A stretch of 64,000 nt of DNA from Tubulanus polymorphus (Eukaryota; Animalia; Nemertea), in the NCBI RefSeq assembly GCF_964204645.1, contig NC_134028.1, positions 18,297,653 to 18,361,652 on the forward strand. The letters run 5' to 3'. Every line of letters begins with the position of its first letter. Within the stretch, counting starts at the first letter, position 1. Below the pieces are notes generated by a model. It was not told the origin of the DNA, did no database searches, and was given only the letters and a program-made list of their open reading frames with translations. Shown one piece after another: positions 16,568 through 52,940 of this stretch. The position numbers were made by a program, and so were the translations under genes.

Positions 16568-16975
16568 AGTAATAGGGGTAATGGGCTTTCAAGCCAAAGG
16601 TCGAACGGTCGAGCTCATTAAAAACAAATGTTAAAAGTAATTTAAAACTATAATATATTTTCATAACCGTGTGCATTTTATATTATAACTAAATATTTAT
16701 TCTAAGATATCAATAATTTAAATTTAAAAAGCATATTGTATTAAATCAATTGGTCGCTCCACTTCGCTACCGCTCCGCTCCGCGACCAATTGATTTATTT
16801 ACAATACACAAATTCATATAATCAAATATATTGTAATAATAATTATTATTCTATTATTCAACTGAAATGCACACGGTTATGAAAATATATTATAGTTTTA
16901 AATTACTTTTAATATTTGTTTTTAATGAACTCGACCATTGAACCTTTAACCTGAAAGCCCATTACCCCTATTACT
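16568..16975. repeat. E1 left terminal fold-back palindrome (TIR continues to ~17185)
   Basis: Starts AGTAATAGGGGTAATGGGC, ends GCCCATTACCCCTATTACT; central stem AATCAATTGGTCGC/GCGACCAATTGATT. Confidence 0.95.
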
Positions 16976-17207
16976 CTTAAAATAATCATATACATGAATA
17001 ACATTTAAATTGACAGATTATTCAATATAAAAGTGTGAGCTCTTATAGAATATATAGATAGATATATTTACAACATTATTTCAATATTTATATTTGTATG
17101 AGTCAGATTTTTAAACATTAAAAGTGTTAGTAAAGTGTGATTGAAATAATACATATTTAAATCATTGAACTTCTAAAATCTATTTTAATAAAAAATTTAG
17201 TATTAAA

Positions 17208-20200
17208 ATGGAAGCAAATAAGTACTACTGCCCAACATGTAATATCAATATAGATAAATCCCAAAAAGCAAGACACAATAAAACTAAAACACATTTAGAG
17301 AATAAATTGAAACTAGAATATAAAGATGATATATTAGAAACTAAATTAGATGAATTAAAGAATGAAAAAGAAACATACAAATGTGATACATGTAATCAAT
17401 CATTCAGTGATAAAAGATATTATAATGAACATTTAAAATCTAAAAGTCGTATTAGAAATAAGAATAATGATATTTTAGGTGAAGATTATTTTGATAAAGA
17501 TAATGATAAGAAACAGAAGACAATTAAAAGCATAAAAAATAAATTAAACAATAAAAGACCATACATGGAAGATGTAAGAAATTATATTAATTCATTGGAT
17601 AATAAAAAAAGATATAGAGATAACCGAAGCATTTAAAAGTGATATTGGCCCAGCAGCTATCGAGTTTAAATTTCATAAAGGTAAAACATTAGAAGAAAAT
17701 AAAAAACATTTAGAAAATATGAAAGAAATAATAAAAATAATAACTGATGTTGAATATCCTAAAATAAGTATATCTTCTAAAGTTAAATTCATAAAATCTG
17801 AAGATAAACCAATATATAATATAAATTCTCATTCACAACATATTATATCTAAACAACATATAGATGATAAATTAGATAAATGTTATAATGAAGTAAAAAC
17901 TAAAATAGAAGAGAAATATTTTGAAGGATCTGGTTTAATATTTGATGAGATAATATTTATGACTTTACATGTTTATAACACAAAATATAATAAGTTAACT
18001 AAATCAAAACCAATTGATGAAAATAATAATAATCATATTATAAAGAACCAGATATTGAAGCATCGAGTTATATCAAACTACCATTTAAAACTAATGCTGT
18101 AATAAATGTACAAAATGAAGATGATAAATGTTTTCTATCGGCTATAATAAGTTGTTTACACCCAGTTGAAGATTATAAACAACATAGTTTTAGATTAACT
18201 CATTATAAACCATTTGAAAATAATTATAATATAGATAAGTATCCTGTTATAATTAAAAACATCCCAAAAATAGAAAGAGATAATAATTTGAGAATAAATG
18301 TATTTGATTTAATCAAATTACCAAATACAAAAGGTAACAACATAAAATATGATACATTAGAACCTTTATACCTATCAAAAGATTATGATTCAAACGATGT
18401 TATAGATATACTATATTATGAGAATCATTATATGTGGATTAAAAAAATCGATTTATTTTTTAAATCAGAAAATGATCACCATAAAATATATCTTTGTAGA
18501 AAATGTTTACATAGATTCAGTAATGAAAGTACATTATTAAATCATAAACAATTATGTGAAAATCACGATTATTGTAAATTAGTTTTACCAAATGAAAAGG
18601 ATAAAATATTAGAATTCAAAAAATATGATTACAAAAATAAAGTACCATTTGTAATATATGGAGATTTTGAATCATTAAATAAAGAACTAACTGATCAAGA
18701 TAGAAAAGAAATATATTATAAGAGAAAGAAATTAAATTCTAATGAAAATGATTATTCTGAAGAACCACCAAAAACAAATACTATTAAAAAGATTCATCAA
18801 TCAGCTGCTGCTTTCGGGTTATATATTAAATCTGATTATCCAGAACTAATTGAGAGTGAATATTATCATTATAGAAATGAAAATGTTATCAATCATTTTT
18901 GTGACTTATTAATTGAATATGAAATAAAATTTAATGAAAAGTTAAATAAAAATATAGAAATTATAATGACAGAAGAAGATAAAGAAGAATTTGCGTTTGC
19001 AGATAAATGTTATTATTGTGAAAAGATATTTAATTATAAAGATAAAAAAGTAAGAGACCATGATCATTTGAACGGAAAGTTTAGAGGCGCTGCACATGAG
19101 AATTGAAACTTACAAGCTAAGAAAATTAACTTTGTACCAGTTATATTTCATAATCTATCAGGATACGATGCTCATTTATTCATCAAACAGTTATGTTATA
19201 AAATAGAAGAAATTAATAATGAAATAGAAAGATTAAATTCAAATAGATCAAAAGATAAAATACCAACTTATAAATTTAGAATGTTAGCTAAAACATCTGA
19301 GAATTATATATCATTCCAATTTGGTTGCCTAAGATTTATAGATTCATATAGATTTTTAAATAGTTCATTAGATAACTTATCAAAATCATTAGTTGATGAT
19401 GAATTAAAAATATTAAAGCAACACTACCCAAATAATGATGATTTTCAATTAATGAGATATAAAGGAGCAATTCCATATTCATTTTATAAATCACATAATG
19501 ATTTTAACATTACTGAATTATTGAAAGAACAATTCTATGATGAATTAAAAAATGAATATGTTAAAGATGAAGTCTATAATAGAAAATTGAATATTTGGAA
19601 TCATTTCAAAATAGAAAATCATGGACAATTAGTAGATTTATATCTAAAATCAGATGTATTATTATTAACCGATATATTCGAAAGGTTTAGAGATTTAAAC
19701 CTAAAATATTTTAACATTGATCCTTGTCATTGTTATTCTAGTCCAGGTTTAACATGGGATTGTGGATTAAAATTTACGGATATAAAAATGGATTTGTTAA
19801 CAAATATAGATCAATTACTATTATTTGAAAAATCTATAAGAGGAGGAGTTTCAGGTGTATTAGGTGATAGATATTTCAATGTAAATGATAACCCTGGATA
19901 TAAGTTATTATATATAGATGCAAATAATCTAGATATTGCAGATGATTCAGATACTGGTTACTTTTTTGTTGTAGATTTAGAATATCCTGAACATATTAAA
20001 TTTAAATCTAGAAATCTAGCTTACTGTCCCAAACATAAAACCGTAACTCATGAAGAATTATCAAATTATCAAAAAAGAATTAAACCCGAAAATAACATTC
20101 ATACAGAAAAGTTAATGGTAACTCAAGAAGATAAATATAATTATGTAGTACATTATAGAATGTTAAAGTTTTATCTAAAACAAGGAATGATCTTAAAAAA

Positions 20201-20554
20201 AGAACATAGATATATTTCATTTAGCCAATCTAAGTGGTTAGAAAAATATATAGATTTTAACACCAAACAGAGAACTAAAGCTAAAACTTGATTTCGAGAA
20301 AGATTTCTTCAAGTTAATGAATAATGCATTCTATGGCAAGACTTGTGAAATTAATAAAAATAGAAATGATATTGAGTTAGTTAGTAATGGTAAAAGGATA
20401 AGGCATTTACAATCATATCCTAAATTTATAGGTAACAGAATATTTGATGAAAATTTAGCCGCCGTTAAGATGAGAAGAACATCAATGAAATTTAATAAAC
20501 CAATCTATGTTGGCGCTTCAGTTTTAGAATTATCAAAATTACTAATGTATGAAT
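17208..20554 (+). pseudogene. protein-primed family B DNA polymerase (pPolB), E1, disrupted and 3'-truncated
   Basis: ORF pieces 17208, 17719, 18288, 19281, 20317; YGDFES, FHNLSGYDAH, RGGVSG, YIDANN, KLMNNAFYGK. Confidence 0.95.
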
Positions 20555-20558
20555 GTAT

Positions 20559-21313
20559 TGTGTAACAAACGTCCCATATAAATTATTCCAAACTATTTCT
20601 GAATTATCTTCTTTTCTAGCTTGTATAGGTTTCATATTTATAGAACTATGTTTAGAATTATTATAACCTTTCATTAAATCATCTAACACATCGATATATT
20701 TAGATGTTTCATTAGCAGTAAAATATTTCCACATTCTAGTTTTCAATGTTTTATTAAATCTTTCTATAATAGATGCTTTTTTATCTGAATGTGTTGAAAA
20801 ATAATCTACATCGTTATCAGATAATAGTTTTTTAAAATGTTTGTTATAGAATTCCTTACCTTCATCAAATTGTATCTTATCTGGAATAGCTTCTTTAAAT
20901 ATAGATTTAAAAGCATTTGTTACTTCTATTCCAGTTTTATTTTTGATTGGAATTGACCATGCGTATCTACTGAATATGTCTATAACATTTAATATCCAGA
21001 AATATCCTTTGTTGTATTCCTCTAAGTTCTTCATGTCAATTAAATCAGCTTGCCATTGTTGATCCATATATGAAACCATAACTTTTCTTGTTAAATAAGT
21101 TTTATCCATTTTCTTGTGGATTTGATATGTTGGTTGATTTTGTAACCATGATTTCAATTCACTATATTTTATGCCACCATGTGGGTGCCATACGGCACCA
21201 TTACCATTTTCTTTATCAGATTTAATTTTATCCCATAATTCTGAAACGTTAGAATATGATACTTCACTTTCTGGGTTGTAATATAAATCTCTTAAATATT
21301 GTTCTTTTTTCAT
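20559..21313 (-). pseudogene. retroviral-like (rve) integrase, E1, C-terminally truncated
   Basis: WQADLID, IDIFSRYAW, QFDEGKEF, IERFNKTLK. Homology to the E3 integrase stops at NLYGTFVT. Confidence 0.93.
21173..21199 (-). mobile_element. 27-bp GC-rich hairpin micro-insertion, copy A (in frame in integrase)
   Basis: GGTGCCGTATGGCACCCACATGGTGGC; absent at the orthologous E3 site (~47120). Confidence 0.8.
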
Positions 21314-21319
21314 CTTATT

Positions 21320-21688
21320 TTAATCCATTAATAATAATCTAGATTTAGTTTCAATGGTTTTATGATTTGACTTATTTTCTGGTATAATAGCTTTATTGTC
21401 ATTGGAATCATATTTATCATCAGATTTGAATTTTGATTTATATATTACACCGGATAATATAATAACTGTTACTAATCCAATTGTAATATATAATTTATAA
21501 TTACTTTCAGCATTAGAAGAATTAGATGGATTATTATTTGAATCAATATCAGATATAGTCTGTGATTCATTTATATCAGTTAATTTCTTTTTCTTAGTTT
21601 TTTTTAATTCTGAAGATCTTTTACCTAATTCTCTTGCCCATTTAATTTGTTTTTCAGATTTAGCCTTTTTCTTAACGCTATCACTCAT
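21320..21688 (-). CDS. Polinton small basic protein with one transmembrane helix (122 aa)
   Basis: Ortholog of E3 46613-47008; hydrophobic LYITIGLVTVIILSGVIY; TAAATG start. Confidence 0.8.
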   Translation of the reverse strand: MSDSVKKKAKSEKQIKWARELGKRSSELKKTKKKKLTDINESQTISDIDSNNNPSNSSNAESNYKLYITIGLVTVIILSGVIYKSKFKSDDKYDSNDNKAIIPENKSNHKTIETKSRLLLMD

Positions 21689-21697
21689 TTATTTTAG

Positions 21698-22282
21698 TTA
21701 ATTTTTGTTCTGATTCATTTTCTGTTTCGACGTTTGGTTGTAGTACATCTGTTTCGTTCTTACCTGATTATATTCCATAGGTTTGATGTTCGAAAATGTT
21801 ATGACGCCAGTAGAAATTAATGTCATAACCGATCCTAATTGAAATGAAGCATAACCAACCCATTTTTGTAATTCAGTCATAACTAAGTAGTCATTTTTCA
21901 AATCACTATATAATTTATTTTCATCATTAATTGGTATTAACTGGTTACATAATGTTGAATAACATTTGACAATACCATCTGAAATAGAATCATTTATTCT
22001 AGCTAATCTAGCTTCTTCATAAATCTTAAAATATTTTATTACTTTATCGGGTTTCATAGCATCTAATTCTTGAAAAGTAATTATTTTCCCGATAAACTGA
22101 TTACATTTCCCGCCAGCAATTAATAATTCTAGATGGTGTTTACAATATAAATAGTATTCATAATCAATATTACAATTAACTTGAGCACAATTAGTTACAA
22201 CTGTATCTTTATTATCACTTATACCCAAATCATCTAATGTCTTTTCAATATCAATAATATTCTTATTAGATTTCTTTGACAT
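21698..22282 (-). CDS. Polinton conserved hypothetical protein (194 aa)
   Basis: Ortholog of E3 46013-46620; TAAATG start; extreme C-terminus probably frameshifted relative to E3. Confidence 0.8.
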   Translation of the reverse strand: MSKKSNKNIIDIEKTLDDLGISDNKDTVVTNCAQVNCNIDYEYYLYCKHHLELLIAGGKCNQFIGKIITFQELDAMKPDKVIKYFKIYEEARLARINDSISDGIVKCYSTLCNQLIPINDENKLYSDLKNDYLVMTELQKWVGYASFQLGSVMTLISTGVITFSNIKPMEYNQVRTKQMYYNQTSKQKMNQNKN

Positions 22283-22530
22283 TTATATTAGAGAAAAAAA
22301 GCAAAAAAAAATATTATAAGTATTCTTCAAATGATACTAGCTAGTTAAGCTAAAGAATTTTAGTATTGACTACTGATACTAGCTATTTGAATTTAAAGAA
22401 TCTCTATTTGAATCTATTCAAAATATAAAGTATTCTCTTTTTGAAAAGAAAATATTAAAAATATAATAGAATTCACTAGCAGTTGAAGTTATTGTTTTTT
22501 TATTATATTTTATTTAAATTAGGATTTAAT

Positions 22531-22557
22531 ATCACCATGTGGGTGCCGTACGGCACC
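22531..22557 (-). mobile_element. 27-bp GC-rich hairpin micro-insertion, copy B (intergenic)
   Basis: GGTGCCGTACGGCACCCACATGGTGAT; absent at the orthologous E3 site (~45764). Confidence 0.8.
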
Positions 22558-22718
22558 ATCTCACTACTATTGTCTATCTATTAGGAGCAGTAATTATAAC
22601 TGTCCAGATAAGTCATTTCGGATCCTCGATAATAAATCCTTAACTGAAAATAAATTCAAAGAAACGACTGGTGGAATTACTATTTCATAAACACATATAT
22701 TTATTATGTAAATTTTAG

Positions 22719-23071
22719 CGATCAATAATAGAACAATGGGGAACAATAGAAATGCGGTCCAATCGGACCGGTTATTGCGCAATACACAGTTATATTTTTA
22801 TTCTGTAAACTACAACATTCAAACATAGAAATGTAACCAATCAATATTGAGCAGCTGTTTCCGTCAACAACGATCAATAGTAGAACAATGGAGAACAATA
22901 GAAAAGCGGTTCAATCGGACCGGTTATTGCGCAATACACTGTTAACAGTAAACAATCAATACAGAACAACCGCCGCCATTAACAACGATCAATAATAGAA
23001 CAATGGAGAACAATAGAAAAGCGGTTCAGTCGGACCGGTTATTGCGCAATACACAGTTTACAGTAAACAAT
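22719..23071. repeat. three-copy tandem array with ATTGCGCAAT and AACAAT motifs
   Basis: Unit CGATCAATAATAGAACAATGGAGAACAATAGAAAAGCGGTTCAATCGGACCGGTTATTGCGCAATACAC at ~22719, 22871, 22986. Confidence 0.9.
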
Positions 23072-23148
23072 ACAATATTAAAACAGATATATACAATCGA
23101 GATTACATTTTTTGATATCTATATTACAAAGACCTTCAGTGTTATAAT

Positions 23149-23878
23149 TTATAATTTTGTCCAGAATTCTTTAATTACTGGATTGTTTCCAATCATTTCT
23201 TCAATTTCTGGCAAATATCTGACTACTTCACTAAATGCTAATCCTAATATTTTGAATTTTTAATATTTTATTAATCTACCTACTCTTCTCAGTTTTCTTT
23301 CAAAACCGGCACTGATATCTATGTTCTTTTTAACCCACAGCCCCCAAGAAATCCCCTCAGTTTCTTTATCAAACATTGAAAACCCTATATTTAGATAACC
23401 CCCGAAAATGATGTGGTCCCATAGGTGATTTGCTTTTCTATTTAATATGGTTTTATAACTTTTTTTAAAGATATCAGTAATTTCAGCAAATGAAATAACT
23501 TCTACACTTTGTATTTCCGGAAAGTTTAAATGTTCTGTGTCAATGATTAATTTAGATTTTAAAAACTCGTTCAACTCTTCTCCACTCATTTTCTTAGTTT
23601 TCGATTCTTTAAGTCCCAACAGCAATTTAAGTCGCGTTGCTGGTAATTTTGGTAATTGTAGTTCGCGCGGTAATTGTTTATTATGTATTACATCACTCAG
23701 AATTTTCACCATTTCTTGATGATAATCCAAATGTTCTTGTAAGTTTTTGTGAAGTTTGTTCGTCAATTACGAGAGTTTCATCCTCCATTTCTATTGATTC
23801 CTGAGTTTCCCTATCCAGCAGCAATCGTTCCTCACCCGTTGGTTGGCTTAGAATTTCTGGTTGATCTCTGTATTCCAT
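23149..23878 (-). pseudogene. Polinton accessory protein (homolog of E3 43647-44396), frameshift plus stop
   Basis: YHQEM, KKMSGEELNEFLKSKL, HLWDHIIFG, ERKLRRVGRLI and C-terminal IKEFW shared with the E3 ORF. Confidence 0.8.
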
Positions 23879-24226
23879 TTTAATCTAAAAGATGTCGTGA
23901 AAATGAATTACTGTACTTAAATATGTTTAAAGGTTTCCCTACTTCATAATAACTACAAAAAACGGTACTTACATTTAGATTTAGAACTGTAAACTGTGTT
24001 TTGAGAGAGAATATCCAATACGTACTATGTATGTGAAAGTTGATTTCTAACTGCCGACGTGGCGCACGTTCGACCAAACTAATTATTTCTGCACAGATGT
24101 TCTTTATGATGAAGTTAATTAATTCTTTAGAATTGAAAACAAGATATATTTGGCAACATATGTTTTAGTAGTAAGCAAAAGCTATGTATTATAGACATAC
24201 AAAGCTCAAATAGAATTGCCAGCTTT

Positions 24227-24867
24227 CTAACCACTGATTAAAACCTCAGAATGCGGTTGATTCTGTGAAATACTATTCCATAATTCAACAAATGTCTTTG
24301 CTTTATCCAGTTGATCTAAATATAACTGTAAATCTAGTTTATTAGATTTAATTATGTTTTCCTTCTTTTCTAAAGGCCTTAAATTTTTCCAGTTCCATAT
24401 TAGCTTCTTATTATAATCATCACTCATGTCAAATTTAGAAATAGGCAACACGTGATCAATATGAAAGTATTCACCATAATTATCTATATTCATTTTATCA
24501 TCGAATTGATATATTATCCATGATTTTAAGAATTCATCTGAACAACCCAATAAATTAAATAGTGTTTCTGAATGTGTTTCTTTGTTGAATAATTGTGTTA
24601 ATCTAGTCCTTAAGCATTGTTTCGATCTAAAATTAAGATCTGTTTGATATCTTTCTCTCATATATTCTGTCATATAATCATTATAAGCTTCTCTATTATC
24701 TTCTCTGTATTGTTTGGTATATAGTTTAAAACAAGTTTTACAGCAATATTGAAAACCATCTTTGCTAATCTTACGCTTACTAAATTCTGTTAAAGCTTCT
24801 TGTGGTATATATTTATGATGCCAGTGTTATTTGTAATATTGATAATTTGCGGTTGTTCTGGTTCCAT
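24227..24867 (-). pseudogene. HNH-type endonuclease with N-terminal Cys zinc motif, E1
   Basis: KDGFQYCCKTC, FHIDHVLPISKF...NLRPLEKKENIIKSNK. TAAATG start at 24867 abuts the right TIR; small deletion/frameshift near 24800. Confidence 0.75.
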
Positions 24868-25073
24868 TTATTATACATATTTTTTTACTAAATTGATTTT
24901 AGAAGTTCAATGATTTATATCATGCATTATTTCAATCACACTTTACTAACACTTTTAATGTTTAAAAATCTAACTCACACAAATATAAATATTCAAATAA
25001 TGTTGTAAATATATACTTTTATATTGAATAATCTGTCAATTTAAATGTTATTCATGTATATGATTATTTTAAG

Positions 25074-25481
25074 AGTAATAGGGGTAATGGGCTTTCAGGT
25101 TAAAGGTTCAATGGTTGAGTTCATTAAAAACAAATATTAAAAGTAATTTAAAACTATAATATATTTTCATAACCGTGTGTATTTCAGTTGAATAATAGAA
25201 TAATAATTATTATTAAAATATATTTGATTATATGAATTTGTGTATTGTAAATAAAGCAATTGGTCGCGGAGCGGAGCGGTAGCGAAGTGGAGCGACCAAT
25301 TGATTTAATACAATATGCTTTTTAAATTTAAGTTATTGATATCTTAGAATAAATATTTAGTTATAATATAAAATGCACACGGTTATGAAAATATATTATA
25401 GTTTTAAATTACTTTTAACATTTGTTTTTAATGAGCTCGACCGTTCGACCTTTGGCTTGAAAGCCCATTACCCCTATTACT
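25074..25481. repeat. E1 right terminal fold-back palindrome (TIR from ~24893)
   Basis: Reverse complement of 16568-16975 with a few mismatches. Confidence 0.95.
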
Positions 25482-27966: not shown

Positions 27967-28373
27967 AGTAATAGGGGTTTAGTTGTTCTATACCAAAGGT
28001 CGAACGGTCGAGCTCATTAAAAACAAAATATTAAAAGTAATTTAAAACTATAATATATTTTCATAGCCGTGTGTATTTTATATTATTACTAAATATTTAT
28101 TCTAAGATATTAATAATTTAAATTTTAAAAGCATATTGTATTAAATCAATTGGTCGCTCCGCTTCGCTAAAGCTCCGCTCCGCGACCAATTGATTTATTT
28201 ACAATACACAAATTCATATAATCAAATATATTCATAATAATAATTATTCTATTATTTAACTAAAATACACACGGTTATGAAAATATATTATAGTTTTAAA
28301 TTACTTTTAATATTTGTTTTTAATGAGCTCGACCATTCAACCTTTAGTATAGAACAACTAAACCCCTATTACT
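27967..28373. repeat. E2 terminal fold-back palindrome, variant arms
   Basis: GGGGTTTAGTTGTTCTATAC paired with GTATAGAACAACTAAACCCC. Confidence 0.95.
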
Positions 28374-28644
28374 CTTAAAATATTTATATACATGAATAAA
28401 ATATATATGAATAACATATAAATTGATAGATTATTCAATATAAAAGTGTTAGTAAAAAAGTAACGAGTAATTAACGAGCTCTTATAGAATAGATATATAG
28501 ATATATTTTAAACATATTTCAATATTTATATTTGTATGAGTTAGATTTTTAAACATTAAAAGTGTTAGTAAAGTGTGATTGAAATAATTCATATTTAAAT
28601 CATTGAACTTCTAAAATCAATTTAAAAAAAGATTTAGTAGTTAA

Positions 28645-31600
28645 ATGGAAGTACTACTGTTCAACATGTAATATCAATATAGATAAATCCCAAAAAGCAA
28701 GACACAATAAAACTAAAACACATTTAGAGAATAAATTGAAATTAGAATATGAAGATGATATATTAGAAACTAAATTAGATGAATTAAAGAATGAAAAAGA
28801 AACATACAAATGTGATACATGTAATCAATCATTCAGTGATAAAAGATATTATAAAGAACATTTAAAATCTAAAAGTCATATTAGAATTAAGAATAATGAT
28901 ATTTTAGGTGAGGATGATTTTGATAATGATAACGATAAGAAACATAAGACAATTAAAACAATAAGAAATAAATTAAACAATAAAAGACCATACATGGAAG
29001 ATGTAAGAAATTATATTAATTCATTAGATAATAAAAAAGTTATAGAGATAACAGAAGCATTTAAAAGTGATATTGGTCCAGCAGCTATTGAGTTTAAATT
29101 TCATAAAGGAAAAACATTAGAAGAAAATAAAAAACATTTAGAAAATATGAAAAATATTTTAAAAATAATTACAGATGTTGAATATCCTAAAATTAGTATA
29201 TCTTCTAAAGTAAAGTTTATAAAATCTGAAGATAAACCAATATATAGTATAAATTCTCATTCACAACATATTATATCTAAACAACATATAGATGAAAAAT
29301 TAGATACATGTTATAATGAAGTAAAAACTAAAATAGAAGAGAAATATTTTGAAGGATCAGGTTAAATATTTGATGAAATAATATTTATGACTTTACATGT
29401 TTATAACACAAAATATAATAAGTTAACTAAATCAAAACCAATAGATGAAAATAATGTATCATATTATAAAGAACCAGATATTGAAGCATCGAGTTATATT
29501 AAACTACCATTTAAAACTAATGCTGTTATAAATGTACAAAATTTTGATGATAAATGTTTTCTAGGGACAATTATAAGTTGCTTACATCCAACAGAAGATA
29601 TTACACGTAGTTTTAGATTAACACATTATAAACCATTTGAAAATAATTATAAGATAGATAATTATCCTGTTAGAATTAAAATATCCCAAAAATAGAAAGA
29701 GATAATAATCTAAGAATAAATGTATTTGATTTAATCAAATTGCCAAATACAAAAGGTAACAATATAAAACATTATACATTAGAACCTTTATATTTATAAA
29801 AAGATTATGATTCAAACGATGTTATAGATATATTATATTATGAAAATCATTATATGTGGATTAAAAGAATTGATTTATTTTTCAAATCAGAAAGTGATTT
29901 TGATAATAAAATATATCTATGTAGAAAATGTTTACATAAATTCACAACTGAAAGTGCATTATTAAATCATAAACAATTATGTGAAAATCATGATTATTGT
30001 AAATTAGTTTTACCAAATGAAAATGATAAAATATTAGAATTCAAAAAATATGATTACAAAAATAAAGTACCATTTGTTATATATGGAGATTTTGAAACAT
30101 TAAATAAAGAATTAACTGATCAAGATAGAAAAGAAATATATTACAAAAAAAAGAAATTAAATTCAAATGAAAATAATATAATTGATTATTCAGATCCCCC
30201 AAAAACAAATACTATTAAAAAGATTCATCAATCAGCTGCAGCTTTTGGATTATATATTAAATCTGATTATCCAGAACTAATTAAAAGTGAATATTATCAT
30301 TATAGAAATGAAAATGTTATCAATCATTTTTGTGACTTATTAATTGAATATGAAATAAAATTTAATGGAAAGTTAAATAAAAATATAGAAATAATTATGA
30401 CAGAAGAAAATAAAGAAGAATTTGAGTTTGCTGATTATTGTATTATTGTGAAAAGATATTTAATTATAAAGATCAAAAAGTGAGAGACCATGATCATTTG
30501 AATGGAAAGTTTAGAGGCGCAGCGCATGAGAATTGTAACTTACAAGCTAAGAAAATCAATTTTGTTCCAGTAATATTTCATAATTTATCAGGATATGACG
30601 CACATTTATTTATCAAACAGTTATGCCATAAGATAGAAGAAATCAATAATGAAATAGAAAGATTAAATTCAAATAGATCAAAAGATAAAATACCAACTTA
30701 TAAATTTAAAATGTTAGCTAAAACATCTGAGAATTATATATCATTCCAATTTGGGTGTCTAAGATTTATAGATTCATATAGATTTTTAAGCAGTTCATTA
30801 GATGATTTATCAAAATCATTAGTTGATGATGATTTCCAATTAATGAGATATACAGGTGCAATTCCATATTCTTTCTATAAAAATCATAATGATTTTAACA
30901 TAACTGAATTATTGAAAGAACAATTCTATGATGAATTAAAAAATGAATATGTTAAAGATGAAGTATATAATAGAACATTGAATATTAGGAATCATTTCAA
31001 AATAGAAAATCATGGACAATTAGTAGATTTATATTTGAAATCAGATGTATTATTATTATCGGATATATTTGAAAGGTTTGGAGATGTAAACCTAAAATAT
31101 TTTAACATTGATCCTTGTCATTGTTATTCTAGTCCAGGTTTAACATGGGATTGTGGTTTAAAATTTACAGATATAAAAATGGATTTGTTAACAAATATAG
31201 ATCTATTATTATTATTTGAAAAATCTATAAGAGGAGGAGTTTCAGGTGTATTAGGCGATAGATATTTCAATGTAAATGATAACCCCGGATATAAGTTATT
31301 ATATATAGATGCAAATAATTTGTATGGTTGGGCAATGATGGAACCACAACCTTATGGAGTATTTGAAATAAGTGAAGTTTTACAACATGAAAGTAATGAT
31401 AAATTTGATTGGAAGAAAAGAATCCTAGATATTGCAGATGATTCAGGTACTGGTTACTTCTTTGTTGTAGATTTAGAATATCCTGAACATATTAAATTTA
31501 AATCTAGAAATCTAGCATACTGCCCAGAACATAAAACTGTAACTCATGAAGAATTATCAAATTACCAAAAAAGAATTAAACCCGAAAATCACATTCATAC

Positions 31601-32642
31601 AGAAAAGTTAATGGTAACTCAAGAAGATAAATATAATTATGTAGTACATTATAGAATGTTAAAAGTTTTATCTAAAACAAGGATTGATCCTAAAAAAGTA
31701 CATAGATATATTTCATTTAGTCAATCTAAGTGGTTAGAAAAATATATAGATTTTAACACCAAACAGAGAACTGAAGCTAAAACTGATTTCGAGAAAGATT
31801 TCTTCAAGTTAATGAATAATGCATTCTATGGTAAGACTTGTGAAAATATTAGAAATAGAAATGATATTGAGTTAGTTAGTAATGGCAAAAGGATAAGGCA
31901 TTTACAAACATATCCTAAGTTTTTAGGTAACAGAATATTTGATGAAAATTTTGCTGCAGTTAAAATGAGAAGAACTTCTATGAAATTTAATAAATCAATC
32001 TATGTTGGTGCTTCAGTTTTAGAAATATCAAAGCTATTGATGTATGAATTCTATTATAATGTATTACAACCTCATTTTGGAGAAAAACATATAGAAATCT
32101 TATATTTTGATACTGACAGTTACATATTAAAGATAAAAACTAATAACATAACTGATGATTTAAAAACATTAAAACATCATTTTGATTTCAGTAATTATCC
32201 TAAAGATCATGAATTGTTTAGCAATGATAATAAAAAGCGACCCAGTAAATTCAAAGATGAATTAGGTGGTGAAGGAATGATTGAAATCATTGGTATTAGA
32301 TCCAAAATGTATTCATATAAAACTAAAACTCATGAATCAAAGAAATTGAAAGGAATAACCAAAAGTGTAGTAGAATAGAATATTCATTTCAAAGATTACA
32401 TCAATTGTATATTCAATGAAGAAGTTAGAAAACATAAGTTGAAATGTTTAAGATCTGAAGATCATGAAATGTTTATTGAAGAAATTGAAAAGATTAGTCT
32501 AAACCCATTTGATGATAAAAGATATACTTTAGATGATGGAATTCATACAGTTGCATATGGTTGCAATTTAGATGAATACTTAAAATTTAAAAGAGAAGAA
32601 ACAAAAGAGAACGAGATAATGAAAAGAATTCTAACGTGTTAA
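28645..32642 (+). pseudogene. pPolB, E2, full length but with stops and frameshifts
   Basis: All polymerase motifs present: YIDANNLYG, KLMNNAFYGK, YFDTDS, KGI; split over ORFs 28736, 29387, 29854, 30438, 32439. Confidence 0.96.
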
Positions 32643-32671
32643 TCAAATTTTTATAAAAATATGTATTATAA

Positions 32672-33025
32672 ATGGAGAGTAAACAAGCACACGGTGAGAA
32701 CAACAAATTAGTTCTTGATAGAATAAAAGATACTTCAAATGTCAAATCAGTAGATTATAGATTTAAGAAGTTAAAAGAATTAATAATCCATAAGAAATAT
32801 CTAATTACAAATATTGTTACAGTTACTAACAAATATGGAGATAAATTAGTTCTACACTTAGAATATGAAGGATTAAAAAGAAATACATATAAATTCAGAA
32901 CATATTTACCAGATAGATTTCATAGATTATCAAGTGAAGATTTAGAAGAATTATGTTCTGGTGATTACTATTTCGTATACAAAGGTAAGAATGAAAAATG
33001 GCACCACGAAATAGATTTCGAATAA
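32672..33025 (+). CDS. Polinton small conserved protein, possibly OB-fold ssDNA-binding (117 aa)
   Basis: Ortholog of E3 56618-56959; beta-rich pattern TNKYG..YLPDRF..VYKG; function is a guess. Confidence 0.65.
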   Translation: MESKQAHGENNKLVLDRIKDTSNVKSVDYRFKKLKELIIHKKYLITNIVTVTNKYGDKLVLHLEYEGLKRNTYKFRTYLPDRFHRLSSEDLEELCSGDYYFVYKGKNEKWHHEIDFE

Positions 33026-33042
33026 GAAAATATGTAAAATAA

Positions 33043-33796
33043 ATGGCGGAATTAAAAGAATACAGAATATTTGTTGATTCAAGAAAACTTACAAATTATA
33101 AATCTCATAATTTACCAATACAAATAGATAGAGAATTCAAGAATTGTGTTGATTTAGAATTAGTTAATATAAGTTTATGTAATTCTTTTCATAATATATC
33201 GAATAAAAGTCTTGATCATTTAGCTTTTAAAATTTATGTTAGAAATTTGAATAAATGGTTTCATCTTTATCTAAAACCAGGATTATATAATTTAGAAACA
33301 TTAGCGCAAGAAATTAATAAAAGAGCTCGTTTAAAAATGGGCTCAGCTCCTCGATTTGAAATTAAATTTATCAAAAGTGATAGTTAACTTTATTCTTACT
33401 ATTCGAACTAATGAACAACATAGATTTCTAGTAAGAAAACCTTTAGCTAAACTGTTTGGAATTCTTCCGGATAGACATTATTCAAGTATTGAAACTTATA
33501 CAAATATAATGACTTTTACACATTTTTATATTTATTGCAATTTAATTAATCCTACAAAAACATTTGAAGCAACTAAAGATACAATTTGTAATTCTAGTAT
33601 ATTAGATATTTTACCATTAAAAAATGTTAAACAATTTGGAACGCAAATAAATTATAATTTAGCTGAATGTGATTTTAAACCTTGTATTCCTCAATTTAAT
33701 AATTTTAAATTAGAAATAAGATATCATAATGGATATTTAATTGATTTCAATAACTTTCCTGTGATATATGAATTAGTTATAAGATGTAGAGAATAA
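33043..33796 (+). pseudogene. minor capsid (penton) protein, E2, frameshifted
   Basis: Two ORFs (33043, 33356) match the two halves of E3 55845-56600. Confidence 0.8.
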
Positions 33797-33872
33797 TTTT
33801 TTCACTATATAAAAGAATATAACTGTTGGGCAGAGTATATGTTTTGGGTTTGATTTTAAACGTGAGAAAGAA

Positions 33873-34172
33873 ATGAAATTTAACATTAATGATGTAATTA
33901 CACATATCAAAAATATTGTATTTTCTAATGAAACAACATTTGAGTATGAAACAACAATAGATAAAGAAACTTTAAATGTAGAAAAGATTACTAATTTAAT
34001 TAGAGAATCTTTAAGATTTTATGAATTAGATGAAGATTTTATCATCGATGATATTAAAAAAATAATAATTGAAATATATACAACTGAAACTAGTAATGAA
34101 ATACATGTTGAAATAATTATCACTAAGATAACTAAATATTTTGACGATAGTAATTTTTTGATAAATAAATGA
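33873..34172 (+). CDS. Polinton acidic hypothetical protein (99 aa)
   Basis: Near-identical to E3 55470-55766. Confidence 0.7.
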   Translation: MKFNINDVITHIKNIVFSNETTFEYETTIDKETLNVEKITNLIRESLRFYELDEDFIIDDIKKIIIEIYTTETSNEIHVEIIITKITKYFDDSNFLINK

Positions 34173-34390
34173 GTGATAATAAGTGGATAATAGGTGGATT
34201 ACATAATGGAGCATTACTATCAGTTGGAACTGTTGGTTATTCAGTGGTATTAAAAAAAGTATTTAAAATGGTAAGTGTTAATGTTGATAGATTTGATATA
34301 AATGATATTTTAAAATTAACGTTAGCAGTTACTTTATCTAATTTAACTAGTGATTATTTAGAAAAACAAAAATATATTCCTCCCATATAA
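34169..34390 (+). CDS. Polinton small hydrophobic protein (73 aa)
   Basis: Near-identical to E3 55248-55469; TAAATG start. Confidence 0.75.
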   Translation: MSDNKWIIGGLHNGALLSVGTVGYSVVLKKVFKMVSVNVDRFDINDILKLTLAVTLSNLTSDYLEKQKYIPPI

Positions 34391-35294
34391 ATGCATAATT
34401 ATTTTACTAAATAAATGGCTTCTGCAGTTATAACTATTATAGGATCGGCAATTATTACCCCCCTCCACCCCAATTTCAAATGCAAAGTTCAATGTTACCA
34501 CAGGATTGACTGGTAAGATTAAAAATGCCAGACTTAATCTCTCGATGAGATCTTCCTGACCAATTACTGATTGGGACCAGGTCAGCAGCCACTTCTTTGA
34601 AAGCATATTTCGCTTTCTTCCTTTTACTTCTCAGATTATCATGTCGGTGAGCTTCTGGGCCATTGGTCCTTTATTGTTTTCTTTTTTGGGTTTGCCAACC
34701 CATCTATGGCATCGTCGTCATGTTTGCCTGTCTGTCTGTTTGTCTGTATGTTTCGTTATGACACGATTTAAGCTGTTAGTGTGGACTGATTATTCTGTAA
34801 ATTAGCACATATATTCTGCACTCGATGTAAATGGTGCAGCTTAGTTTATATTTGATTCTGATGTTTATAAGTGCTCAAATTTGGTTATAGATTAATCAAC
34901 GTTACTCGTTAGATCAAGCCGTTGTAGGGCGTTGCCACAATACACTCGCATGTAATACGGAACACGTACATAGAGATATTGATCGTACGCGCTGATCAAG
35001 TCTAATGCCTCGCCATCAGCACCTTTAATGAGTACGGGAGCTTCAATCAAAGTCGCGAGAAATATTGGTGACGAATTCAAAGTATTATTACATATTCCAC
35101 TAAACAAACAGTTTTTTGATGAAAATATCATTTAACACCATATAATGTCAGCGCACCAGGGCCCACCAGCGTTTTTGCGGGTGAAAACCACACCCAGTAA
35201 TACAGAGATCCGTAGTCTGAGCAACGCTGAAAACGGTTCTTAAGTAATTAGATATGGTATAAAGTGTCATCAGTTTAACTCGTTTTTATGTCCT

Positions 35295-42243: not shown

Positions 42244-42822
42244 AGTAATAGGGGTAATGGGCTTTCAGGCCAAAGGTCGAACGGTCGAGCCCATTAAAAA
42301 ACAAAATATTAAAAGTAATTAAAAAACTATAATATATTTTCATAACCGCGTGCATTTTATATCAAAACTAAATATTTATTCTAAGATATCAATAATATAA
42401 AAAGCATATTGTATTAAATCAATTGGTCGCTCCACTTCGCTACCGCTCCGCTCCGCGACCAATTGATTTAATTACAATACACAAATTCAAATAATCAAAT
42501 ATATTCAAATGATAATAATTATTCTATTATTCAACTGAAATGCACGCGGTTATGAAAATATATTATAGTTTTTTAATTACTTTTAATATTTTGTTTTTTA
42601 ATGAACTCGATCATTAAACCTTTAGCCTGAAAGCCCATTACCCCTATTACTCTTAAAATATTCATATATATATGAATAACATTTAAATTATTGAACTTCT
42701 AAAATCAATTTCAATAAAAAATATAGTATTAAAATGGAAGCAAATAAGTACTACTGCCCAACATGTAATATCGATATAGATAGATCCCAAAAAGCAAGAC
42801 ACAATAAAACTAGAACACATTT
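42244..42822. repeat. E3 left TIR (palindrome 42244-42651 plus promoter and first ~29 pPolB codons)
   Basis: Reverse complement of 59970-60548; only two mismatches noticed. Confidence 0.96.
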
Positions 42823-43260
42823 GTTTTTAGTCCAGTTGGTTAAAGCAAAGACATTTATCGAATTAAGGAACTCAACATATAGTGAAAAATATGTTGAATC
42901 GTTATAAACACCCGATAATACTCAGCTATATAGTTGGTTGTATTAGCTCTAGTAAACATATGTTACCAGCTTATATTTCAATTGTAAAGAGTTAATTAAT
43001 TTCATTAATCTAAATGCTTTTATTATTGATTTTTTTTCAACTTCAACGCGTTGTGTATACGGCGAACGTTAGCGAATCACAAATCTCATAATTTACAAGT
43101 CTCAACACACTTGTTCTAGATGTTTATACTAGAAAATGATTCTATTTTAACCTATATACATTCAATGTACAGAGCCATAGAATAAATCTATAAATTCACA
43201 GCTGTTACAGTTGTTACTATGACGACGAGACATTATGACACATCATAATCAGAAACGTGT

Positions 43261-43275
43261 AGAATATTCTAGAAA
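43261..43275. promoter_or_regulatory. candidate heat-shock element
   Basis: aGAAt-aTTCt-aGAAa, three alternating nGAAn units upstream of the accessory ORF. Confidence 0.4.
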
Positions 43276-43646
43276 GACGCACCGGAACTAGATGATGTAG
43301 CATAATCAACAACGTGTCATTCTAGAAATCGCCCCGGAAATGGACATACGCTGTAATATTGTGCTCAGGATATTCTATCTTTCGAAACGAAATTAGGAGT
43401 TTATAGTTTACAATTATAAATCTAAATGTAAGTACTGTTTTTTGTAGTTATTGGGGCTATTAAATATGAAACCTTTAAGTGCTTTTGACAACTACAACTT
43501 CATACAGTTAATTCTATTTTACGTTAGATAGATAATAACTTGAACTATAATAAGTTATAATAATTAGAAACGATAGACTTGAAAATATTTATATCATATA
43601 ATATCGCGGTTCCTGTTCTACCGCTGATATCTTTTAGTTGAATAAA

Positions 43647-44396
43647 ATGTCGTGTGTATCAAGAAGTACTCTTGATTCTCAGAGGACAACCGAAATGGAA
43701 GATGAACAAACCGAAATAGAAGATGAAAAAACCGAAATAGAAGATGAACAAACCGAAATGGAAGATGAAGTAAAAGAATCTTTCGATATAGAAGATGAAA
43801 CGTTAGAAGAAGTTAAAAAACATTTATATTACCATCAAGAAATGACATTAATTTTAGAAAAAATTATAGAAAACCAGCAATCAAGCGTAACATCATTACC
43901 GAAAAGACCAACAACCAATGTAGAAATATTGTTAAGACTAAAAGGAACAAAAACTAAAAAGAAAATGAGCGGAAATGAGTTAAATAAGTTTTTAAAATCA
44001 AAATTATCAAATGAAAAAGATGTAAGTTTTAAAGAAATAGAAGGTATAACATCATTTAATGAAATAACTGTTTTATTGAAAAAAAATTATAGAACCTTGT
44101 TATTCAAAAAAGCAAAGCATTTATGGGATTATATCATTTTCGGGGATTGTTTAAATAGGGGATTTTTAATGTTTAATAAACAAACTGCGGGGATTCCTTG
44201 GGCTTCTTGGGTTAAAAAATATATAGGTATCAGTGTTGGGCATGAAAGAAAATTAAGGAGCGTAGGGAGATTAATTATATATAAAAGATTCAAATTATTA
44301 AGTTTGTCATTTAGTGAAGTAATCAGAAATATGCCAGAAATTGAAAAAATGCTTGTCAATGATCCAGAAATTGAAAAGTTCTGGTTGGAATTATAA
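43647..44396 (+). CDS. Polinton accessory protein with acidic EDEQTE repeats (probable ATG 43647)
   Basis: Open frame; homolog in E1; candidate 5'UTR intron 43428-43637. Confidence 0.8.
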   Translation: MSCVSRSTLDSQRTTEMEDEQTEIEDEKTEIEDEQTEMEDEVKESFDIEDETLEEVKKHLYYHQEMTLILEKIIENQQSSVTSLPKRPTTNVEILLRLKGTKTKKKMSGNELNKFLKSKLSNEKDVSFKEIEGITSFNEITVLLKKNYRTLLFKKAKHLWDYIIFGDCLNRGFLMFNKQTAGIPWASWVKKYIGISVGHERKLRSVGRLIIYKRFKLLSLSFSEVIRNMPEIEKMLVNDPEIEKFWLEL

Positions 44397-44465
44397 ATCA
44401 AATTATGTACAACGACTGAACAACTTGTATAATGTATTGTGTAAATCTGTTTGGTGAATTTTTAT

Positions 44466-44892
44466 GTTCGGTCGTTTCTATTTCTAGAATGAATATATAA
44501 TTATGATTAGCGCATGCGCATTGATCAAAAGCGCGCACGAATGCGCGCTTTTGATTAGGTATGATTTGTGAATTTTTATGTTTAGTCGTTTCTATTATGA
44601 TTAACGCATACGCATTAAGCAAAACCGGCCATAAATGGCCGCATGTAACACATGTAACACATGTAACGCATGTGTTGTTTCTATTTTACAGAATTTCTAG
44701 AATGAATATATAATTATGATTAACGCATGCGCATTAAGCAAAAGCGCGCACGAATGCGCGGTTTTACCTAATGTGAACATGTTTTGATATTTTCTGTGTT
44801 CGGTCGTTTCTATTTTACAGAATTTCTAGAATGAATATATAATTATGATTAACGCATGCGCATTAAGCAAAAGCGCGCATGAATGCGCGGTT
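44466..44892. repeat. tandem array with CGCATGCGCA palindromes
   Basis: Unit TTCTAGAATGAATATATAATTATGATTAACGCATGCGCATTAAGCAAAAGCGCGCACGAATGCGCG, three full copies and one partial. Confidence 0.9.
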
Positions 44893-45035
44893 TTGCCCAG
44901 TGGTATTATTTAGATATCAAGGAATCGAAACAACTTATCAAAAGCAGCGAGGAATGAAAAAGGATGACGTTGATCGAAGAAATGGAAGAGGATTCTAAAA
45001 TATTAACCAATTTAGTAAAAAAATATGTATAATAA

Positions 45036-45709
45036 ATGGAACCAGAACAACCACAAACTATCAATATTACAAATAACACTGGCGTTATAAACATATATTA
45101 CAAGAAGTGTTCTAAATGTGAATTAAATAAATCATTAACAGAATTTAGTAAGCGTAAGATTAGCAAAGATGGTTTTCAATATTACTGTAAAACTTGCATT
45201 AAACTATATACCAAACAATATCGAGAAGATAATAGAGAATCTTATAATGATTATATGACAGAATATATGAGAGAAAGATATCAAACAGATCTTAATTTTA
45301 GATTGAAACAATGCTTAAGATCTAGATTAACATAATTATTCAACAAAGAAACACATTCAGAAACACTATCTAATCTATTGGGTTGTTCAGATGAATTTCT
45401 CAAATCATGGATAATATATCAATTCGATGATAAAATGAATATAGATAATTATGGGGATTATTACCATATGATCACGTGTTACCAATATCTAAATTTAACA
45501 TGAACGATGAATACAATAAAAAACTTATTTGGAATTGGAAAAATTTAAGACCTTTAGAAAAGAAAGAAAATCAAACCAAATCTAATAAACTAGATTTACA
45601 GTTATATTTAGAACAGTTAACAAAGGCAAAGAAATTTATTGATCAATGGAACAATAATCCAAATAATGAACAATACGTTGAGGAATTTGATATCAAGGAT
45701 CCGAAATGA
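45036..45709 (+). pseudogene. HNH-type endonuclease, E3 (stop at 45333, frameshift ~45468)
   Basis: CSKC..KDGFQYYCKTC, DHVLPISKF, NLRPLEKKENQTKSNK; ortholog of E1 24227-24867. Confidence 0.78.
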
Positions 45710-46012
45710 CTTATCTGGACAGTTATAACTACTGCTCCTAATAGATAAACAAAAGTAGTGATATATCAAATCCTAATTTAAATAAAAAGTATTTAAAAAA
45801 CAATAACTTCAACTAGCTATCTAATTCTATTATATTTTTAATATTTTCTTTTCAAAAAGAGAATACTTTATATTTTGAATAGATCCGAATAGAAATTCTT
45901 TAAATTCAAATAGCTAGTATCAGTAGTCAATACTAGAATTCTTTAACTTTAACTAGCTAGTATCATTTTATAATACTTATAATACTATTCTTATTAAATT
46001 TCTCTAATATAA

Positions 46013-46620
46013 ATGTCAAAGAAATCTAATAAGAATAGTATTGATATTGAAAAAACATTAGATGATTTAGGTATTAGTGATAATAAGGATACAGTTGTTT
46101 CTAATTCTATTCAAGTTAATAACAATATAGATTATGAATACTATTTATATTGTAAGCATCATCTAGAACTATTGATTGCTGGCGGGAAATCTAAGGACTT
46201 CTTAGGAAAAATAATAACTTTTCAAGAACTAGACTCTATGAAACCCGATAAAGTAATCAAATATTTTAAGATTTATGAAGAGGCAAGATTAGCTAGAATA
46301 AATGATTCTATTTCAGATGGTATTGTCAAATGTTATTCTAAGTTATGTAACCAGTTAATACCAATTGATGATGAAAATAAATTATATAATGATTTGAAAA
46401 TGACTACTTAGTTATGACTGAATTACAAAAATGGGTCGGTTATGCTTCATTTCAATTAGGATCGGTTATGACATTGATTTCTACTGGCGTCATAACATTT
46501 TCGAACATCAAACCTATGGAATATAAATCAGGTAAGAACGAAACAGATGACGCTGTACTACAACCAAACGTCGAAACAGAAAATGAATCAAAACAAAAAT
46601 TAACTAAAATAAATGAGTGA
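46013..46620 (+). pseudogene. Polinton conserved hypothetical protein, frameshift ~46400
   Basis: ORFs 46013 and 46414 together match E1 21698-22282. Confidence 0.8.
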
Positions 46621-47008
46621 TGGAGTTAAGAAAAAGCCTAGATCCGAGAAACAAATTAAATGGGCAAGAGAATTAGGTAAAAGATCATCAGAATTAAAAA
46701 AAGCTAAGAAAAAGAAATTAACTGATATAAATGAATCACAGACTTTATCTGATGGTGTCGTACGGCACCCACACGGTGGTATTGATTCAAATAATAATCC
46801 ATCTAATTCTTCTAATGCTGGAAGTAATTATAAATTATATATTACAATTGGATTAGTAACAGTTATTATATTATCCGGTGTAATATATAAATCAAAATTC
46901 AAATCTGATGATAAAGATGATTCCAATGATGATAAACCTATTATACCAGAAAATAAGTCAAATCATAAATCAAATGAAAATAAATCTAAAATATTATTAA
47001 TGGATTAA
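46613..47008 (+). CDS. Polinton small basic membrane protein (131 aa)
   Basis: Ortholog of E1 21320-21688 plus a 9-aa insert GVVRHPHGG. Confidence 0.8.
   Translation: MSDGVKKKPRSEKQIKWARELGKRSSELKKAKKKKLTDINESQTLSDGVVRHPHGGIDSNNNPSNSSNAGSNYKLYITIGLVTVIILSGVIYKSKFKSDDKDDSNDDKPIIPENKSNHKSNENKSKILLMD
46754..46780 (+). mobile_element. 27-bp GC-rich hairpin micro-insertion, copy C (in frame)
   Basis: GGTGTCGTACGGCACCCACACGGTGGT between GAT and ATT; E1 has uninterrupted GATATT. Confidence 0.8.
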
Positions 47009-47011
47009 AAT

Positions 47012-48100: not shown

Positions 48101-48707
48101 AGATTTATTTATATTTGAACCACATAATATGTTAGTTACTGGAGTTACAAATTGTGGTAAAACACACTTCATATTATATTTATTAGAAACTATTTATAAA
48201 AATCATTTTGATAATATAATATTATTCTGCCCAACTTATGAAATGAATGAAACGTATAATAGAGATATAGTTTTTAAAGATAAAAAGTTTATTATATTAA
48301 ATTCTAAAACAGTGAAAGATAATTTAGATAATTGTATAAAAATTGCAATAGATATTTATAAAGGATCTAATACATTATTTATTATTGATGATTGTGCAAA
48401 TTTACATGATTCAAAAGTTAGAGAAAGTGAGTTATGTTATTTAGCTTTCTCTGGTAGACATTTTGGGATAACAACATGGGTTTTAAATCAGAAATATAAT
48501 TCAATTGTGAAAGATTTTAGAGAGAATATAAGATTTCTAGTTTTATTCTACAACAAAGATAGAAAATCTATGCAACAATCATTGGAAGAAAATCAAATTA
48601 TACCTCCTGAATTACATGATGAATATATGAATAAATTAAAGAATAATAAAGGTTCCAAATTACTTATGAGATTACAATTTCCATATGAATATAAATTTAT
48701 AAAATAA
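48093..48707 (+). CDS. A32/FtsK-like DNA packaging ATPase (204 aa)
   Basis: Walker A GVTNCGKT, Walker B LFIIDD, SGRHFGI motif. Confidence 0.92.
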   Translation: MNKDLFIFEPHNMLVTGVTNCGKTHFILYLLETIYKNHFDNIILFCPTYEMNETYNRDIVFKDKKFIILNSKTVKDNLDNCIKIAIDIYKGSNTLFIIDDCANLHDSKVRESELCYLAFSGRHFGITTWVLNQKYNSIVKDFRENIRFLVLFYNKDRKSMQQSLEENQIIPPELHDEYMNKLKNNKGSKLLMRLQFPYEYKFIK

Positions 48708-48723
48708 AATCCTAATTCAAAAT

Positions 48724-49105: not shown

Positions 49106-49109
49106 CTTT

Positions 49110-50165: not shown

Positions 50166-50197
50166 TTATTATATACATTTTTATTAAAGTTAAAATT

Positions 50198-51445: not shown

Positions 51446-51465
51446 TTATTTAACAAAAAAATTAA

Positions 51466-52924: not shown

Positions 52925-52940
52925 TTACATAATAAAAAAA

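Follow-up and report, generated by a model that had tools for sequence, protein, structure and literature searches.

The five Polinton ends in the window (the whole 64-kb stretch of DNA that was analysed) each open with an imperfect palindrome of 407-408 nt, and this unit is the outer part of the Polinton terminal inverted repeat (TIR), holding a second, inward and inverted copy of the element end. Comparisons among the copies show that the two arms of the unit evolve in concert, either copying each other or being selected to stay paired, and the structure is both real and maintained.

A motif search of both strands places the fold-back ends exactly where the sequence-only reading had put them, and the five pairs of coordinates are all correct. 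In the whole window the terminal motif AGTAATAGGGG is found at these ends alone, five times per strand. Element 1 has one unit at its left end (16568..16975, + strand), defined by folding, motif search and alignment, and one at its right end (25074..25481, - strand), with five differences between them. The sole end of element 2 in the window (27967..28373, + strand) carries a block of changes at positions 13-26 that is mirrored on both arms, and the units at the left (42244..42651, + strand) and right (60141..60548, - strand) ends of element 3 are identical to each other, with mirrored indels at columns 58-60 and 78-79 and a mirrored substitution at 106. The anatomy proposed earlier (arms, AT-rich zone, inner stem and loop) was recovered: at the left end of element 1 the outer arm (~16568-16680) and inner arm (~16863-16975) are each ~113 nt long, an AT-rich, poorly paired zone lies next to them, and an inner stem of 7+16 pairs (16734-16757 with 16782-16806) encloses a 24-nt loop (16758-16781). 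Aligned from the terminus inwards, 347 of 414 columns are invariant and the five ends share a single polarity with respect to the element, in agreement with the earlier remark that only one loop polarity, and no flip/flop isomer, occurs among them. Base 1 of the element is also the first base of the palindrome, and the pairing register is exact at the terminus: the inner arm's first base is the partner of the terminal T, and element body supplies the template base that follows. The stem base is, to the nucleotide, the boundary of the target duplication.

The claim that each end pairs with itself holds up well on folding. The segment 16568-16975 forms one single hairpin of -120.7 kcal/mol, compared with -29.3 +/- 4.2 kcal/mol in 100 shuffles (z -21.6), none of which folds as well. 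When the element body was tiled in 408-nt segments as a control, 41 of 44 gave -37 kcal/mol or weaker, the remaining three corresponding to a tandem-repeat block (-63 and -52) and a second, internal palindrome (-89). The arms have 4-11 mismatches per end. Those at positions 28, 35 and 39 are common to all five ends and are G.T in the hairpin of the 3' end and C.A in that of the 5' end; the 3'-end hairpin is the more stable by 6-14 kcal/mol at every end. This wobble bias could stem from CpG decay at 35 and 39, and the three shared mismatches are inherited and so are not independent evidence.

Public reads of 150 nt are too short to span 408 nt, which is the one point in favour of an assembly or library artefact, an explanation to which we give almost no weight. 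The five ends have copy-specific yet mirrored differences, fixed mismatches and, in the two-ended elements, perfect 6-bp target duplications, and in Illumina run X6 (2026, same species label, ~12% of the run, 150-nt reads) coverage is continuous over the arms, the loop and both junctions at a depth of ~1000-3100; the concern, voiced with the original description, that the assembly had created the structure is thus not borne out. At the outer terminus 1382, 319 and 197 reads pass into unlike sequence with an agreement of just 0.35-0.36, as expected of many different host flanks. Depth is 14-19 in four of five bins of the element 3 flank and, if this flank is single-copy, there are ~60-100 ends of the family per genome copy.

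The three elements are Polintons, as had been proposed, judged by polymerase, integrase, ATPase, TIRs and target duplication. Element 1 (16568..25481) is internally deleted, with a TIR of ~650 bp and the target duplication TGTATC at 16562-16567 and 25482-25487. Element 2 (27967..34457, + strand) is truncated, retaining the polymerase end only, with its polymerase gene in several frames and its sequence breaking off near 34457. Element 3 (42244..60548) is 18.3 kb long, with a 579-bp TIR (42244-42822 and 59970-60548, two mismatches) and the target duplication AGTAGA at 42238-42243 and 60549-60554. Both two-ended elements thus have perfect 6-bp duplications, and the termini are of the AGT/ACT type, the end reading AGTAAT. 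The three copies are 88-95% alike over their common parts and are clustered within 44 kb (16568-60548). Their TIRs reach into the 5' end of the polymerase gene, and both element ends carry the polymerase start.

Element 3 encodes an rve integrase with a chromodomain (47012..48100, + strand; PF00665, E 6.8e-9, above cut-off; Chromo, E 7.3e-5, below cut-off) and an A32-type packaging ATPase (48093..48707, + strand; PF04665, E 5.2e-12). Pfam matches of the capsid genes are weak and below cut-off only. A 415-aa product (50198..51445, - strand; PF16903, E 0.0064, below cut-off; 755 homologs) is the likely major capsid protein, an assignment supported by synteny, in that the gene co-occurs with ATPase, integrase and polymerase in related loci. 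A 251-aa product (55845..56600, - strand), with a weak DUF5901 match, is a possible minor capsid protein, assigned from size and position. No maturation protease family was found among the 28 ORFs scanned, in which small and broken ORFs are partly covered; the protease is present in most, not all, Polinton/Maverick members.

Concerted change of the arms is seen both between the assembled copies and in the reads. Within an element, outer and inner arm are 93-95% identical, whereas identity between the outer arms of different elements is 85-92%. Over 114 columns, differences present on both arms number 11 between elements 1 and 2, 6 between elements 1 and 3, and 15 between elements 2 and 3, and those on one arm only number 7, 6 and 7 respectively. 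Columns within a block are not independent, and the mirrored columns reduce to at least five events (13-26, 58-60, 78-79, 106 and 110). Element 3 has the same 408 nt at its two ends, and its mirrored changes therefore belong to the lineage rather than to one locus. In the read pool, variants at four positions occur on both arms: position 11 (552/2522 outer, 331/1431 inner; 22 and 23%), position 16 (821/2618 and 411/1390; 31 and 30%), position 76 (244/1298 and 321/1075; 19 and 30%) and position 107 (604/1408 and 762/1062; 43 and 72%). Misplaced outer-arm reads were ruled out as the source of the inner-arm variants at 11 and 16, which we take as genuine because the excess of inner-arm depth over body depth is <200 reads, against 331 and 411 variant reads. 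The other variants have no mirror partner among the 40 listed of 160 variant rows.

Homogenisation of the arms is patchy. The outer/inner mismatches at 28, 35 and 39 are retained at all five ends, and in a zone of ~55 nt (positions 114-170) the arms align yet differ, each being conserved between copies. Position 28 is leaky in the read pool, the outer letter being found in 251 of 1363 inner-arm reads. The reads also contain a second end family from the same species, which shares approximately the first 57 nt and then diverges (883 reads; breakpoints at 16624 and 16941 on the element 1 reference, and at 42300 and 42617 on that of element 3). It too has an inner arm (242 reads), which is mirror-like according to the loose-end summary.

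The polymerase of the family belongs to the protein-primed B type, and its N-terminal 912 aa are encoded in element 3 (57320..60058, - strand). They comprise a predicted terminal-protein domain (~145-261, with Ser241), a vOTU protease (Cys307/His406) and an exonuclease with an Endonuclease VII/HNH insert (~600-635; PF02945, E 1.6e-5, above cut-off). The frame stops ahead of the polymerase motifs, ~1 kb that is found in element 2 being missing, and the longest piece in element 2 (30435-32378) matches the polymerase core (PF03175, E 6.9e-17); the gene is thus broken in both of the copies examined. An AlphaFold model of the polymerase (pLDDT 80.6) has phi29 polymerase as its best match (Z 15.0, rmsd 2.8, 178 aligned), and residues 145-261 match the little-finger/PAD domains of Y-polymerases (Z 8.3-8.8; 4ir1 at Z 8.7, rmsd 2.5, 93 aligned), the fold that Krupovic et al. 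(bioRxiv 10.1101/2024.03.18.585575), in the portion available, assign to Polinton terminal proteins. A model of the terminal-protein domain alone, built without an alignment, was poor (pLDDT 48.7) and was not used, and a Foldseek structure search gave no match at E <= 0.001. Ser241 lies in the loop where Krupovic et al. place the linking residue and is kept in 53 of 55 aligned rows, the other two having gaps; Cys307 is kept in 54 of 55 aligned proteins and His406 in 55 of 55, and the HNH residues H617, H619, C632 and N633 are invariant in all 55. As the polymerase keeps its predicted terminal-protein domain, protein priming is probably retained. The named polymerase homologs belong to corals, spiders and insects (31-35% identity), which makes an animal host probable. 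An Endonuclease VII/HNH insert in the exonuclease domain is also described for pPolB2 by Jeong et al. 2023, who, in the sections available, treat it as special to the pPolB2 of nematodes and oomycetes. By hand count PF02945 is present on ~70 of 120 listed polymerase homologs, including rows named coral and beetle.

The likeliest function of the fold-back, supported by the co-evolution of the arms, is a role in a single-stranded intermediate, as had been suggested at the outset. Specifically, the hairpin may provide such an intermediate with both a local duplex origin and a back-up template for the element end, a proposal to which we assign slightly less than even confidence. Single strands are exposed by protein-primed strand displacement and, in the accounts available, by the standard Polinton loop-out model. 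In a displaced or looped-out strand each end would fold locally within its 408 nt, and such folding would be faster than the meeting of two ends 9-18 kb apart. The 3' hairpin would then offer the terminus as duplex for terminal-protein-primed initiation, and a polymerase could restore lost terminal bases using the inner arm as template. Copying between the paired arms, by template switching or heteroduplex repair, would give rise to mirrored changes, and the few fixed outer/inner differences may prevent the inner copy from being used as a genuine end when the DNA is duplex. As precedent, Streptomyces telomeres are described as combining fold-back end repair with protein priming (PMC5449611); template switching is known to make the arms of inverted repeats alike (PMC8604942), and mismatches in the vaccinia hairpin are reported in PMC8956199 to be needed for packaging and not for replication, from which it follows that retained mismatches can be functional.

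Some observations sit less easily with this origin-and-template role. In the folding model a full panhandle between the left and right ends reaches -662 kcal/mol against -442 kcal/mol for two hairpins plus the residual stem; with so large a stability gap in favour of the panhandle, only kinetics could let the hairpins prevail. Repair running inwards from the tip cannot on its own mirror positions 58-110 yet leave 28, 35 and 39 unmatched, and patchy copying together with selection must therefore be assumed. A paired 3'-OH could, moreover, simply be extended into the element body.

Such extension is the core of a parvovirus-like alternative, in which the folded 3' end primes the second strand and the resulting hairpin or dimer product is nicked open, possibly by the HNH/Endonuclease VII insert. 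The geometry is exactly that required of a primer, with the terminal T on the first inner-arm base and the body next; the 3'-end hairpin is the more stable of the two, the four HNH residues are invariant in all 55 aligned polymerases, and the same model has been proposed for Halocafeteria elements in the text available (bioRxiv 10.64898/2026.07.28.741278). We nonetheless consider self-priming unlikely, if still a serious competitor. Symmetric resolution should yield both flip and flop ends, yet all five are of one polarity (a chance of 0.06 if the ends are independent and of 0.25 counting three insertions), and the reads suggest that flipped ends are fewer than ~1 in 7. Both the predicted terminal-protein domain and the accompanying protease are intact, Pfam revealed no HUH Rep among the 28 scanned ORFs, and the HNH motif is also found in L027, a related locus which has no fold-back.

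The read-based bound on flips comes from the loose ends. Reads running from the inner end (16975) into host DNA are absent from the best 6 of 144 loose-end rows, the smallest of which has 197 reads; set against 1382 reads at the outer end, this indicates that flipped ends or solo units likely make up less than ~1 in 7. Positions 35 and 39 are not among the 40 listed of 160 variant rows, a weak bound on flips. We set aside an 'opposite strands' joint at 16624/16917 (77 reads, with smaller ones of 11 and 5) as evidence of flipping because it lies at a private outer-arm difference of element 1; with element 3 as the reference no opposite-strand joint is present among the best 15 of 33. No solo 408-bp unit is present in the 64-kb window. 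The idea that the 408-bp unit moves alone thus found no backing, either in the window or as an inner-end host junction among those best six rows, and among integrated copies flipped ends and solo units are likely a small minority.

The same data bear on a role in excision. Here a hairpin in a lagging-strand gap, or a cruciform in supercoiled chromatin, would place a single-strand/duplex junction at the host-element boundary for cutting, and both this role and the cutters proposed for it (the integrase, the HNH insert, or host flap and junction nucleases) seem to us distinctly unlikely. The base of the stem does fall on the target-duplication boundary exactly, the polymerase has the PF02945 Endonuclease VII match (E 1.6e-5), and local hairpins would avoid the 18-kb loop-out with paired TIRs that the standard model, in the descriptions available, calls for. 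Cruciform resolution should, however, leave solo hairpin footprints, of which the window has none, and no inner-end host junction appears in the best 6 of 144 loose-end rows. Extrusion of a cruciform would be impeded by the 24-nt loop and the 55-nt mismatched zone, and PF02945 shows no tie to this type of end, since ~70 of 120 listed homologs carry it. Sequence analysis alone cannot separate self-priming, the excision mark and a neutral origin of the palindrome.

Relatives were sought among 83 capsid-linked loci, of which those of at least 3 kb were screened, and 11 polymerase-linked loci. TIRs are visible in five of these, and an inward copy of the first 30 nt is found in none of the five, where the best local score for such a copy is 8-12, compared with 24-28 at the ends in the window; the screen is weak, in that an AGTAGT-type start is present in just two of the five and contigs built from short reads often end before the termini. 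The contigs of the five closest relatives (L004-L008, 70-76% capsid identity) stop before the element ends, L007, at <3 kb, falling outside the screen. The absence of a terminal fold-back in all five related TIR contigs indicates that related polymerases work without one. In a distant relative with 35% capsid identity (L046:120-330) the TIR has subterminal hairpins, but its terminus is not repeated as a fold-back. Searches of viral contigs with integrase and capsid queries turned up no relatives, and matches there to the loop-side motif (three loci, without a hairpin) and to the terminal motif (one locus) were dismissed as chance.

Related elements without a terminal fold-back are also what would be expected if the palindrome were a neutral by-product, one old fold-back accident perfected by template switching without benefit. 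Arm homogenisation of this kind is described in PMC8604942, as far as its available text goes, and the Halocafeteria authors offer accidental annealing as an alternative in theirs (bioRxiv 10.64898/2026.07.28.741278). Under such a process all mismatches should disappear and the spacer should frequently be inverted; the loop polarity, the mismatch at position 35 and the 55-nt zone have nonetheless been kept. Hairpin deletions do occur, but seldom (joints of 4-16 reads where depth is >1000), and the architecture survives in the diverged second end family. We accordingly think a neutral origin improbable.

The internal palindrome of element 3 raises the question of a role in packaging or at the level of RNA (as a terminator, insulator or small-RNA source) rather than in DNA synthesis. 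This imperfect palindrome of ~418 nt (48706..49123, z -15.1) lies between the convergent ATPase and capsid gene blocks and is unrelated in sequence to the terminal one; in four of the close relatives (L004, L005, L006 and L008) the ATPase is closely followed by hairpins that differ in sequence, with z of -3.8 to -9.6 (12 shuffles). In mimiviruses transcription ends follow a hairpin rule, and by analogy the palindrome at 48706-49123 is possibly a transcription end signal. For the terminal units, the vaccinia mismatches, required in packaging and not in replication according to the part available of PMC8956199, offer a parallel, although a packaging or RNA-level role explains neither the start of the palindrome at base 1 nor the duplicated end motif, and no Rfam match was found in 42200-49200; we regard it as very improbable.

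Among known systems, parvoviruses have terminal hairpins that are long imperfect palindromes with the 3' end placed as a primer. The ends described here resemble those of parvoviruses and poxviruses, as portrayed in the sources available, in being long imperfect terminal palindromes with AT-rich mismatches and a 3' end positioned to prime. They differ in that flip and flop isomers are not seen (five of five ends of one polarity, in integrated copies only) and, from parvoviruses, in that no HUH Rep/NS1 nickase was found among the 28 Pfam-scanned ORFs and the element integrates by an rve integrase.

The closest relatives in gene content are the pPolB2-type Polintons (Jeong et al. 2023, Krupovic et al. 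2024), which, in the portions available, share a pPolB with terminal-protein, vOTU and HNH-type insert, and have in common with our elements the rve integrase, A32 ATPase, TIRs (579-650 bp), 6-bp target duplication and AGT...ACT ends. Here, in contrast, each TIR is self-complementary over its first 408 nt, the end is AGTAAT and not (AGT)2, and no maturation protease was found among 28 ORFs. Casposons (PMC4046053, in part) are likewise self-synthesising integrating elements, some with palindromes inside their TIRs; theirs are prokaryotic, use a Cas1 integrase, and have palindromes that are internal and not a second copy of the end. Streptomyces telomeres (Tpg/Tap) also have protein-primed linear ends at which a folded 3' end templates terminal repair, and this repair uses a short terminal hairpin rather than distant pairing; they are bacterial, with replication from an internal origin followed by end patching and palindromes of ~13 nt in the sections available (PMC5449611), and we claim no homology.

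Terminal palindromes have been reported in endogenous virophages of Halocafeteria seosinensis (subtypes 1, 2, 5 and 6) as well as in PLV subtype 4 (bioRxiv 10.64898/2026.07.28.741278). In the accessible part of that preprint the palindrome adjoins the target duplication within the TIR of elements with an rve integrase, as it does here, a hairpin-priming model is proposed, and the authors call for a wider survey. Their example is 52 nt (longer cases may exist in the supplements) compared with 408 nt here, and theirs occur preferentially with non-pPolB replicases, whereas here a pPolB with a predicted terminal-protein domain is present, together with a likely animal host and arm co-evolution. 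The possibility that such structures were already described is therefore partly realised: terminal palindromes with a hairpin-priming model were on record, in much shorter form and mostly with non-pPolB replicases in the text available. Elsewhere, neither 'hairpin' nor 'palindrom' appears in the body of the nematode, vertebrate, adintovirus, cryptophyte and 2015 PLV papers, poxvirus hairpins are the sole hairpins mentioned in the entomopoxvirus PLV paper, and a palindromic repeat is marked in a figure legend in the available part of one 2026 preprint. In a mostly non-subscription literature we came across no description of an animal pPolB Polinton whose TIR folds back, nor of co-evolving arms. 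What is new relative to published work is the larger palindrome, the protein-primed polymerase and the arm-to-arm concerted evolution, and the range of terminal palindromes extends beyond protist elements that lack pPolB.

Current ideas on how Polintons excise and start replication rest on a model of pairing between two distant TIRs; here each end has its own partner. A speculative extension, which we think doubtful, is a Polinton lineage that joins protein priming with hairpin ends, the 408-nt hairpins marking the host-element boundary for release and then serving as origin. If true, the element would need no 18-kb loop-out, the question of how integrated Polintons leave the chromosome would have an answer, and protein-primed Polinton ends would be linked to the hairpin ends of parvoviruses and poxviruses. 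The fold-back end is a short, defined DNA on which protein priming, self-priming and structure-directed excision make different predictions.

Several minor features were noted along the elements. An ESM Atlas search gave no usable match for a 462-aa ORF, and PDB sequence searches returned zinc fingers and weak unrelated matches only. Between ORFs of element 3, 44440-44900 consists of 94-129-nt tandem repeats with short self-complementary cores. A broken ORF at 45036-45709 has Cys-x-x-Cys pairs, an HNH-like motif and no convincing Pfam match. A 106-aa ORF at 54347-54667 (- strand) has a weak match to SLATT two-transmembrane effectors (E 0.002, below cut-off). In the host flank, 8582-9841 and 15616-16032 contain a Tc5/DDE_1 transposase remnant and a C-terminal fragment of a retroelement integrase.
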